Sequence record: NC_054906.1
Source: Enterobacteria phage RB18
Length of the DNA stretch: 64,000 nt
Strand: one strand, 5' to 3'
Shown here one piece after another: positions 31,567 to 32,821 of this stretch. The notes below the pieces were generated by a model. The model was not told the origin of the DNA and searched no databases. It worked only from the letters and a program-made list of their open reading frames with translations. The stretch's first letter is position 1. Every line of letters starts with the position of its first letter. Made by a program: the position numbers and the translations under genes.

Positions 31567-31585
<19 letters not shown>

Positions 31586-32055
31586 TCAGTGATAAAGTTA
31601 TTTAAATTTTGAGTATATTTCTTTTCATCAAAAATCTTTTGCTGTCTGCGTAACCGCCATGGCATTTCAATGAACGCGCACCATATCCCAGATAATATTG
31701 CTGCTGTCAAAATATTAACAAGCATAATTAAAAGAATCCAATCTCCTGTTCTGCCTATTGGACTTTCTCCAAAGAAGCAAAATACGAATGATGACACAGG
31801 AAGACTAATAATATACCACAGAATCATAATTTTATTTGTAAACCAATCAGCATTTGTTAACTTAGCGCGACCATTATGAATACACACGAATTTATCATCT
31901 GTTATAATAGATGGCTTAGCTGCTTGATATCCCATTCTAAACTCCCTAATCAACAAATTTTTCATATCTTCGGAACAACCATTCCAGTCAACTCTATCAA
32001 CTGAAATGCCATCATCCCCATCATCTAAATCATACCAGCGAGTTTTTAAAATCAT
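31567..32055 (-). CDS. Small membrane protein, tandem paralogue 1
   Basis: 162 aa; two hydrophobic helices; C-terminal tail ...[10 protein letters not shown]. Confidence 0.5.
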
Positions 32056-32426
32056 TTAATTTTCCTACAATCACTCACAAACTCTTCCATTGATTCTTTT
32101 TCAATATAAGACATGTAGTTATTATATTCTTTTAATTGTATTTTGTAATCTTTTTTTCTTTGCCAATTTATTTTAAAATTATCATAATGAAAATATAACA
32201 TGGTACCAAAGAATGAAAATAATGAAATCGCTATAGTATAATGAAGTTCACTCCAAACTTCTATTATATCTATTATACCGCTGACGTTACTACGGATGTT
32301 TAAAATAAAACAGTCAATTAACAATCCAATAAGACTACCTGCAAGAGCTGCAAATGCTGATACGGCAAGAATTAATAGTGCCTCTGGAAACGAATATTTA
32401 ACTTTATTTAGTTTTGGCTTTTGCAT
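32052..32426 (-). CDS. Small membrane protein, tandem paralogue 2
   Basis: 124 aa; two hydrophobic helices; tail ...EEFVSDCRKIK. Confidence 0.5.
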   Translation of the reverse strand: MQKPKLNKVKYSFPEALLILAVSAFAALAGSLIGLLIDCFILNIRSNVSGIIDIIEVWSELHYTIAISLFSFFGTMLYFHYDNFKINWQRKKDYKIQLKEYNNYMSYIEKESMEEFVSDCRKIK

Positions 32427-32821
32427 CGTGATTCCTTAACAAATTTCATAATTTCATCAAATTCATACGCAGCAAGTTTAAGCTGGTGTTCATTTTTAAT
32501 CTTTTTACACTGAGCTTTCCATTCGCGTACGCGTTTACGATAATGTCTTCCTTGATACCAGTATCCTACCCAATTTATAGGTACTAATAAAAATGGAACT
32601 ACTAATGGAAGAATTAATACTAACAGAAATATTACGCCAGATTCAATATCAGTCATAAAGTCTATAATCATTCCAACAATCAATAGAATTACAAATGATA
32701 TAGCTGTCACAGGACCTATTAATACATCAGTAGAAATTATCTGACGCTTTAATTCATACTTCAACGGTTTACTTGGAAGGTATAGTGATGGTTTTGACAT
32801 ATTCTCTACATTCCTTAACAA
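32408..32821 (-). CDS. Small membrane protein, tandem paralogue 3
   Basis: 137 aa; two hydrophobic helices; tail ...KFVKESRCKSQN. Confidence 0.5.
   Translation of the reverse strand: MLRNVENMSKPSLYLPSKPLKYELKRQIISTDVLIGPVTAISFVILLIVGMIIDFMTDIESGVIFLLVLILPLVVPFLLVPINWVGYWYQGRHYRKRVREWKAQCKKIKNEHQLKLAAYEFDEIMKFVKESRCKSQN

Follow-up and report, generated by a model that had tools for sequence, protein, structure and literature searches.

The 64,000-nucleotide stretch of Enterobacteria phage RB18 DNA analysed here (sequence record NC_054906.1; called the window below) carries at positions 31567-32821 three overlapping genes for small membrane proteins, e.2, e.3 and e.4, which can be compared with several described systems. 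T4 Imm, a small early inner-membrane protein of superinfection immunity, resembles their products in being small and early and in placing two hydrophobic helices in the inner membrane (judged on the Imm sequence of phage AR1), but has neither a long basic tail nor an ending of the type F-[IV]-x-E-C-R. Gene pairs that are translationally coupled through an ATGA overlap of stop and start codons have the same arrangement as e.3/e.2 and e.2/nudE, with the Shine-Dalgarno sequence inside the upstream gene; unlike the usual coupled overlaps, however, the same encoded peptide recurs here at four successive junctions. The T4 proteins e.2, e.3 and e.4 (UniProt P32273, P32274 and P39222) are full-length orthologues, with 80-100% identity within Tequatrovirus, though e.2 is split into e.2a and e.2b in T4T and intact (162 amino acids) in the window; they are listed as conserved hypothetical, predicted membrane proteins of unknown function and essentiality (PMC11879866, supplement 8). 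The PeSL cassettes of T4-type phages are short boundary repeats ending in a Shine-Dalgarno sequence and a start codon (PMC2839356, PMC4122927); they consist of intergenic promoter, stem-loop and Shine-Dalgarno repeats, and recombination between copies shuffles open reading frames (ORFs) (PMC2839356).

The shared C-terminal module of e.2 to e.5

The window is a segment of a Tequatrovirus (T4-like) genome: 505 phage records, with AR1 at the top, align with its part 31100-33400 at 90-98% identity, and its e.4 product matches an RB18 protein at 100% identity. Gene names were assigned by synteny with AR1 and T4T, in which the order e.5-e.4-e.3-e.2-nudE, on one strand, is identical. The three ORFs are orthologues of the T4 early genes e.2, e.3 and e.4, long catalogued in T4 and not new. 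The string comprises the following genes.

31567-32055, minus strand: e.2 orthologue, 162 amino acids (ORF; PHROG 2203, E 7e-78; synteny with AR1 and T4T)
32052-32426, minus strand: e.3 orthologue, 124 amino acids (PHROG 2330, E 3e-61; synteny with AR1)
32408-32800, minus strand: e.4 orthologue, 130 amino acids from its ATG (PHROG 2604, E 5e-71; synteny with AR1 and T4T)
32769-33377, minus strand: e.5 orthologue, 202 amino acids (PHROG 2607)
31130-31585, minus strand: nudE (Nudix hydrolase) as the listed ORF, the 3'-most gene of the string (Pfam NUDIX, E 2e-13)
31130-31570, minus strand: nudE in its likelier extent, from the second ATG, which overlaps the stop codon of e.2 as ATGA

Judged from the sequences, the robust element common to these proteins is a module at the C-terminus, some 10-14 residues long, with the consensus ...[LIM]-x-x-F-[IV]-x-[ED]-[CS]-[RK]..., and not whole-protein homology. 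Composition predicts 0.9 matches to the core F-[IV]-x-[ED]-[CS]-[RK] when the 64-kb window is read in six frames; five are observed, and four of the five sit 3-11 residues before the stops of e.2, e.3, e.4 and e.5 (the e.5 C-terminus being EKFVKECREYVKTITIPSK). The resemblance of these four consecutive C-termini goes far beyond chance. No further match occurs in the remaining ~105 kb of the AR1 genome (169.5 kb in total). The modules and an associated repeat are placed as follows.

31567-31596, minus strand: e.2 tail module, TTT ATC ACT GAA TGC AGG AAA TTA AAA TGA, whose AGGAAA is the nudE Shine-Dalgarno sequence
32052-32081, minus strand: e.3 tail module, TTT GTG AGT GAT TGT AGG AAA ATT AAA TGA, whose AGGAAA is the e.2 Shine-Dalgarno sequence
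32408-32443, minus strand: e.4 tail module, TTT GTT AAG GAA TCA CGA TGC ... TAA, with AAGGAA 6 nucleotides 5' of the e.3 ATG
32769-32822, minus strand: e.5 tail module, TTT GTT AAG GAA TGT AGA GAA TAT G..., including the e.4 start
32431-32446: copy 1 of an exact 16-nucleotide direct repeat (minus strand AAATTTGTTAAGGAAT), in the e.4 tail
32810-32825: copy 2 of this repeat, in the e.5 tail, 379 nucleotides from copy 1

The repeat shared by the e.4 and e.5 tails is the sole 100% identical 16-nucleotide repeat in the region (family D7). The module is also found in sister genera, where Mosigvirus e.3 ends in IENFIKECRK, Dhakavirus e.2 in LNSFIKECRK, e.3 of both Gaprivervirus and Dhakavirus in LETFIKECKS and Gaprivervirus e.4 in EEFIKEVRNGTA, each directly before the stop codon, and e.5 ends ...FI[MA]ECREY.... 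A further carrier is gp069 of Mosigvirus SF (L002 5007-5312), a protein of 101 amino acids that ends in NLENFIKECRGK and has, by eye, two hydrophobic helices followed by a charged tail; its neighbour is homologous to the protein encoded before e.2 in Dhakavirus. Tequatrovirus e.5, e.4 and e.3 have V at the second motif position, where the other genera mostly have I. The genes 3' of the module differ among these phages, and therefore the module is attached to the upstream protein and not to a particular neighbour.

Scans of IMG/VR for the back-translated motif returned only the known e.2, e.3 and gp069 genes and out-of-frame chance matches; one FIKECRK followed by a stop codon and ATG, in a 222-kb contig (L009), lies in an 11-codon frame and was set aside as most likely chance. 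We found no paper that describes a shared tail of e.2-e.5, and the occurrence of one tail peptide on four consecutive proteins, and on proteins of sister genera, may be new. As a separate observation, the gene after e.3 in Mosigvirus, Gaprivervirus and Dhakavirus is the first of 3-5 small soluble paralogues in tandem (L002 2857-3651; L004 3191-4009; L011 3681-4923), each of which ends in G-x-W-[VI]-S-S-S-x-x-C and a stop codon and is followed by TAAGGA...ATG, a second case of shared C-terminal endings.

An earlier sequence-only reading of this DNA had reported three overlapping ORFs with related C-terminal motifs in a T-even phage. All three ORFs are present, on the minus strand, where it placed them, the phage is T-even by nucleotide match and synteny, and the motifs are real, being carried in addition by a fourth gene that it had passed over, the soluble e.5. 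Its lengths of 162 and 124 amino acids hold, whereas its 137-residue e.4, read from a TTG at 32821, gives way to a product of 130 residues: the e.4 start is most likely the ATG at 32800, because it is so annotated in AR1 and T4T and the N-terminus MSKPSLYLPSKP is conserved in other genera (as such in Mosigvirus; shortened, as MRTLYLPSKP, in Gaprivervirus). The overlaps of 4-19 nucleotides that it gave were found again (e.3/e.2, 4 nucleotides, as ATGA; e.4/e.3, 19 nucleotides), and e.5 and e.4 overlap by 32 nucleotides. The listed nudE ORF begins at an ATG within the e.2 tail (MQEIKMKTL..., window 31567-31585). In phages without e.2 a TTG replaces this upstream ATG, and nudE is annotated from MKTL..., with an ATGA overlap; since the upstream ATG is missing there, nudE more likely starts at the second ATG (31570), and the e.2/nudE overlap is probably the 4-nucleotide ATGA at 31567-31570 and not one of 19 nucleotides.

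Constraint on the module as RNA and, probably, as peptide

The module DNA holds the Shine-Dalgarno sequence of the next gene, and often its start codon as well; the last codons of each gene are therefore the ribosome-binding site of the next. In its commonest form, TTT ATT AAG GAA TGT MGN AAA TGA, the Shine-Dalgarno sequence AAGGAA stands 6-11 nucleotides before the next ATG, which often overlaps the stop codon as ATGA, and such stop/start overlaps are compatible with coupled translation. Divergence within Tequatrovirus bears marks of constraint on the nucleotides and probably on the peptide too. Across nine genomes the proportion of synonymous differences (pS) is 0 over the final 14 codons of e.4, compared with ~0.18 for the remainder of that gene, and over the final 24 codons of e.5 it is 0.054 versus 0.168 in the body. 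For e.2, the final 12 codons show a normal pS of 0.167 and a proportion of nonsynonymous differences (pN) of 0. Moreover, the peptide is kept in five cases in which the Shine-Dalgarno sequence lies in other codons, namely Tequatrovirus e.2 and e.3 (where the R-K codons supply AGGAAA), gp069 (K codon AAA, Shine-Dalgarno sequence in CGAGGAAAA), Gaprivervirus e.5 and Mosigvirus e.5, and the Arg codon of the motif varies by lineage among AGG, AGA, CGT and CGA. Because the peptide persists where the Shine-Dalgarno sequence has moved, the Arg codons vary and the e.2 tail has a pN of 0, the tail peptide is probably selected as protein too.

T4 often has Shine-Dalgarno sequences of the AGGA type within the preceding gene, and we considered whether its ribosome-binding sites generate the motif as a matter of course, a view rejected on the absence of the motif elsewhere in the genome. 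No Rfam family was found at 31000-34500, and the four junction RNAs have no unusual structure (z from -1.4 to +1.7).

Hydropathy and charge divide the three membrane proteins into the same parts: two hydrophobic 19-mers separated by a short acidic loop, with basic N- and C-terminal flanks. The transmembrane segments (TM1 and TM2) are predicted by hydropathy as follows.

e.2: cytoplasmic N-terminal domain at residues 1-75, TM1 at 76-94, acidic loop, TM2 at 106-124, basic tail
e.3: TM1 at 19-37, TM2 at 61-79 (weaker), tail ending in EEFVSDCRKIK
e.4: TM1 at 28-46, TM2 at 55-73, long basic tail ending in MKFVKESRCKSQN

We thus take e.2, e.3 and e.4 as predicted N-in/C-in, two-helix hairpin proteins of the inner membrane with a cytoplasmic tail of 38-57 residues, in which K+R and D+E number 9/4, 10/8 and 14/6, respectively, and which is probably helical; e.5 has no hydrophobic segment by hydropathy. 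Within Tequatrovirus, identity to the window copy is mostly 95-99% for e.5 and mostly 80-90% for e.2-e.4, and the variation is concentrated in the membrane hairpin, a pattern seen again in 37-89 protein cluster representatives. The ratio pN/pS is 0.92-0.93 for each helix of e.4, 0.79 for the e.2 hairpin and 0.49 for the e.3 hairpin, compared with 0.10-0.25 for the cytoplasmic tails and 0.08 for the e.5 body. These ratios indicate purifying selection on the tails and a near-neutral course of the membrane helices as long as they remain hydrophobic, and we read the hairpins as interchangeable hydrophobic anchors and the tails as the part that is constrained and does the work. It is conceivable that the hairpins are under diversifying selection; the e.2 loop has a pN/pS of ~3 (only 11 codons, 5 genomes). 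This predicted periplasmic loop (residues 95-105, window 31732-31764) occurs as two haplotypes, GESPIGRTGD and IKNPMDRIGD.

Paralogy, gene loss and recombination

The sequence-only reading had called e.2, e.3 and e.4 paralogues, each with two hydrophobic helices and a charged cytoplasmic tail, and had named a topology prediction and an alignment as the way to check this. The predicted topology and order of parts are indeed the same in all three, but similarity on alignment is largely limited to the C-terminal tail: that part of the claim stands, while paralogy of the whole proteins is not borne out by three separate PHROG families, each matched end to end, by hidden Markov models (HMMs) without cross-matches and by a similarity that mostly disappears upon trimming of the tails. 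Pairwise BLASTP among the three proteins aligns only the last ~14-21 residues. Profile-profile comparison with hhalign gives e.3 and e.4 a probability of 76-81% (over TM2 and the tail) and e.3 and e.2 one of 73-74% (tail only), with no match between e.4 and e.2. After trimming of the tails, a weak collinear signal is left for e.3 and e.4 (p = 0.0018, reversed controls 0.014-0.18; p 0.014-0.04 with shuffles that preserve regional composition), and none for e.2 with e.3 or e.4 by hhalign or shuffles. Across genera, BLASTP aligns Gaprivervirus e.3 with e.4 (E 7e-5 over 84 residues; p ~0.02 after trimming) and Dhakavirus e.2 with Gaprivervirus e.3 (E 2.6e-4 over 84 columns), and cross-family shuffles in 10-residue blocks give z of 3-7 with the last 10 residues and at most 2.7 without them.

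Each of the three family HMMs matches only its own gene among the 1,419 ORFs of the genome, and a search of 1.84 billion cluster representatives with the e.3 profile found nothing that bridges to e.4 or e.2: its six matches at E <= 0.001 were five e.3-type sequences and one weak, unrelated repeat protein, by which measure the e.3 family is confined to T-even-like phages. A related-locus search with the e.3 alignment returned five loci, too few for population analysis. Pfam, NCBIfam, PADLOC and PDB sequences gave nothing informative beyond the three self-families and NUDIX; PF26896 (e.2) and PF26873 (e.4) are listed for homologues, and a local Pfam scan returned neither. The names 'sulfurtransferase' and 'DNA primase' borne by some e.3 and e.4 homologues (P0007, P0014, P0032, P0098, P0100 and others) look spurious, since NCBIfam gives no match in their support. 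Taken together, e.3 and e.4 may be old duplicates, with the chances about even, and e.2 shares only topology and tail with them. As the same tail stands on soluble e.5 and on the gp069 family of Mosigvirus, it marks a shared module and is no proof of whole-gene duplication.

The module also coincides with the limits of a lost gene. In three Tequatroviruses, an IMG/VR genome (L015), IME340 (L019) and CE1 (L020), e.2 is precisely absent, e.3 ends in FV[IS]DCRK joined to LK and a stop codon, and nudE follows by ATGA. Their DNA runs as e.3 up to the shared TGCAGGAAA and continues with e.2-tail sequence, TTAAAATGAAAACA; the e.3-e.2 tail chimera, directly 5' of nudE, also appears as TGCAGGAAA followed by TTAAAATGA. 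From these sequences, the e.3 and e.2 modules are the repeat across which e.2 was deleted, with the module as the deletion breakpoint. Loss of e.2 is more parsimonious than gain because e.2 beside nudE is also the Dhakavirus arrangement. In T4T (L005 3234-3721) e.2 is split into e.2a (102 amino acids) and e.2b (36 amino acids), and thus the type phage carries a broken copy of a gene that is intact in the window. Phage UFV11 (L021 1501-1821, protein P0096) has a natural in-frame e.4::e.2 fusion of 106 amino acids with e.3 deleted, the joint lying in TM1 (..GPVT joined to SFVF..) at a short common DNA, TCCTGTG.CA...TCATT.GTA.

The outcome at e.2 in L015, L019 and L020 is that of recombination between PeSL copies, by which single ORFs are removed or added, though perhaps in one event. 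The sites differ, however: PeSLs are intergenic and contain an early promoter and a stem-loop, whereas the module is coding and supplies the upstream protein with its C-terminus, and the junctions here overlap, have no stable stem-loop and show no excess of promoter-like sites over shuffled sequence. Module DNA that doubles as ribosome-binding site and recombination breakpoint may also be new.

Expression, rival explanations and proposed role

In T4 the RNAs of e.2-e.5 are all early in time-resolved omics, and of the proteins detected by mass spectrometry e.4 and e.5 are early, e.2 middle and e.3 late (PMC9697503, supplements 4 and 6). CRISPRi-ART knock-downs of T4 e.2-e.5 were scored 'Not Fit', that is, without fitness effect (PMC11879866, supplement 15), a kind of assay that would not reveal exclusion. 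With the split e.2 and the UFV11 fusion, these T4 knock-downs show e.2-e.4 to be dispensable in the laboratory. On the function of e.2-e.5, literature searches turned up only tabulated annotations and genome-wide screens. In the T4 record L13089, early-type promoters are marked ahead of e.8, e.7 and e.6 and a stem-loop after e.6, with no promoter or stem-loop from e.5 to nudE, and the surroundings of the string in the window are arranged as follows.

30598-31092, minus strand: lysozyme gene e
33419-34012, minus strand: e.6
33398-33413: G+C-rich stem-loop AGGGGCCGAAGCCCCT between e.6 and e.5, matching the stem-loop of L13089
34067-34040, 34459-34431 and 34796-34768, minus strand: the best promoter-like sites, upstream of e.6, e.7 and e.8

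The hairpin at 33398-33413 may be an attenuator before the e.5-nudE string. The promoter scan as a whole was not discriminating (30 sites against 22 expected from shuffles), and weaker matches lie inside e.5-e.2.

The account that we favour, if by a modest degree, combines the module, the junction and a common peptide; its anatomical part, the module and its placement at the junctions, we hold with good confidence. It has to be set against the possibility that e.2, e.3 and e.4 are true, far-diverged whole-gene tandem paralogues that act in superinfection exclusion or interference with membrane defences, an interpretation we consider improbable but worth keeping in view. Identical hairpin topology and part order speak for it, as do the similar lengths of e.3 and e.4, their N-terminal M-x-K-P-x-L and their collinear alignment, the cross-genus BLASTP matches and the UFV11 fusion, which joins e.4 and e.2 at the same place of TM1 over common sequence; early expression of small two-helix membrane proteins further recalls T4 Imm. 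Yet the proteins fall into different PHROGs with self-only HMMs, the block-shuffle scores sink once the last 10 residues are removed, e.4 against e.2 gives nothing by hhalign or by shuffles that preserve regional composition, and the tail also sits on e.5, which is soluble. As to exclusion, the three HMMs do not match the AR1 Imm ORF, PADLOC models have no match for e.2-e.4, and no Pfam-A family was reached at the cut-off (E <= 1). Far less probable still is a tie to lysis, with the proteins as class-II-holin-like or antiholin-like partners of the neighbouring lysozyme gene e. Two N-in/C-in helices with a charged C-terminal tail, encoded 0.5-1.7 kb upstream of the endolysin gene, would fit such a role, but t and e account for T4 lysis, the genes are frequently lost and no holin family of Pfam or PHROGs is matched. 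Nor is their expression the late one of a class II holin, their RNA being early (PMC9697503, supplement 4), and knock-down has no phenotype (PMC11879866, supplement 15).

An alternative that bears more directly on the module itself would make the tail purely a nucleic-acid feature, a Shine-Dalgarno sequence with an overlapping start, homogenised by gene conversion between junctions and encoding a functionless peptide. The position of AAGGAA or AGGAAA in the motif, 6-11 nucleotides before the next ATG, the lack of synonymous change in the e.4 tail and its threefold lower level in that of e.5, the exact 16-nucleotide repeat, the V of three Tequatrovirus genes as against mostly I in other genera at motif position 2, which hints at concerted change, and the unstructured junction RNA, like that of efficient initiation regions, are all as this alternative would have them. 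It accounts poorly, on the other hand, for the absence of the motif from every other overlapping junction in 169.5 kb despite the frequency of AGGA-type Shine-Dalgarno sequences, for the peptide kept in the five displaced cases (with K encoded by AAA, not AAG, in gp069), for four different Arg codons, for an e.2 tail with normal synonymous divergence and zero amino-acid change, and for F and [IV], which sit upstream of any Shine-Dalgarno sequence. On balance we think this alternative unlikely, about on a par with whole-gene paralogy.

Our own account of module, junction and common peptide meets a number of observations that weigh against it. Persistence of the peptide after a shift of the Shine-Dalgarno sequence could partly be historical inertia, and the e.4 motif has its Cys replaced by S, I or V. 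The selection statistics come from 5-9 genomes and stretches of 12-14 codons. AlphaFold2 models were too poor to use (pLDDT, the predicted local confidence score, of 50 for e.2 from a 10-sequence alignment and of 39 for e.5 from a single sequence). The three phages without e.2 may descend from one deletion event, and tblastn found Tequatrovirus-type e.3 in ~497 records and e.2 in ~446, so that e.2 is missing from ~10% of the Tequatrovirus records that have e.3. Finally, the content of the cluster varies, from e.5-e.4-e.3-e.2-nudE in Tequatrovirus through e.5-e.4-e.3 followed by other genes in Mosigvirus and Gaprivervirus to e.5-e.3 in Dhakavirus, which has no e.4 and carries e.2 5 kb away beside nudE; as e.2, e.3 and e.4 are not always together, an obligate hetero-complex is disfavoured.

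On the combined account, a duplication or insertion in an overlapping string would have to carry the 3' end of the upstream gene with it to keep the downstream gene translatable; the module would have spread because of that need, and two constraints would then maintain it, one on the peptide and one on the ribosome-binding site. The hairpin would serve as membrane anchor and the tail as the working part, whereby the proteins would display the same short Cys- and Arg-containing peptide on the cytoplasmic side of the inner membrane, where it would bind one common partner or the displayed peptides would bind each other. That the tails present a common peptide to a shared partner is the tentative part of this account, and we would not call it likely; the role so proposed would be accessory and dispensable in the laboratory. 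A bolder and rather speculative form, to which we give somewhat less credence, sees in F-[IV]-K-E-C-R a portable in-frame 'junction cassette' of the Tevenvirinae with three simultaneous roles: a short linear peptide that would direct five or more early proteins with no other relationship (four hairpin membrane proteins, one soluble) to one inner-membrane partner, a ribosome-binding site that would couple the next gene, and a homology patch that would allow insertion or deletion of single genes with both reading frames intact.

The case warns that a tail conserved between overlapping neighbour genes says little for their paralogy. If the junction-cassette reading were true, the module would be the coding counterpart of PeSL-mediated shuffling, and if the peptide binds a common partner, one pull-down could open several T4 orphan genes. 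If, instead, the module is mainly a junction device, it would show how genes can be gained and lost cleanly in overlapping phage operons.

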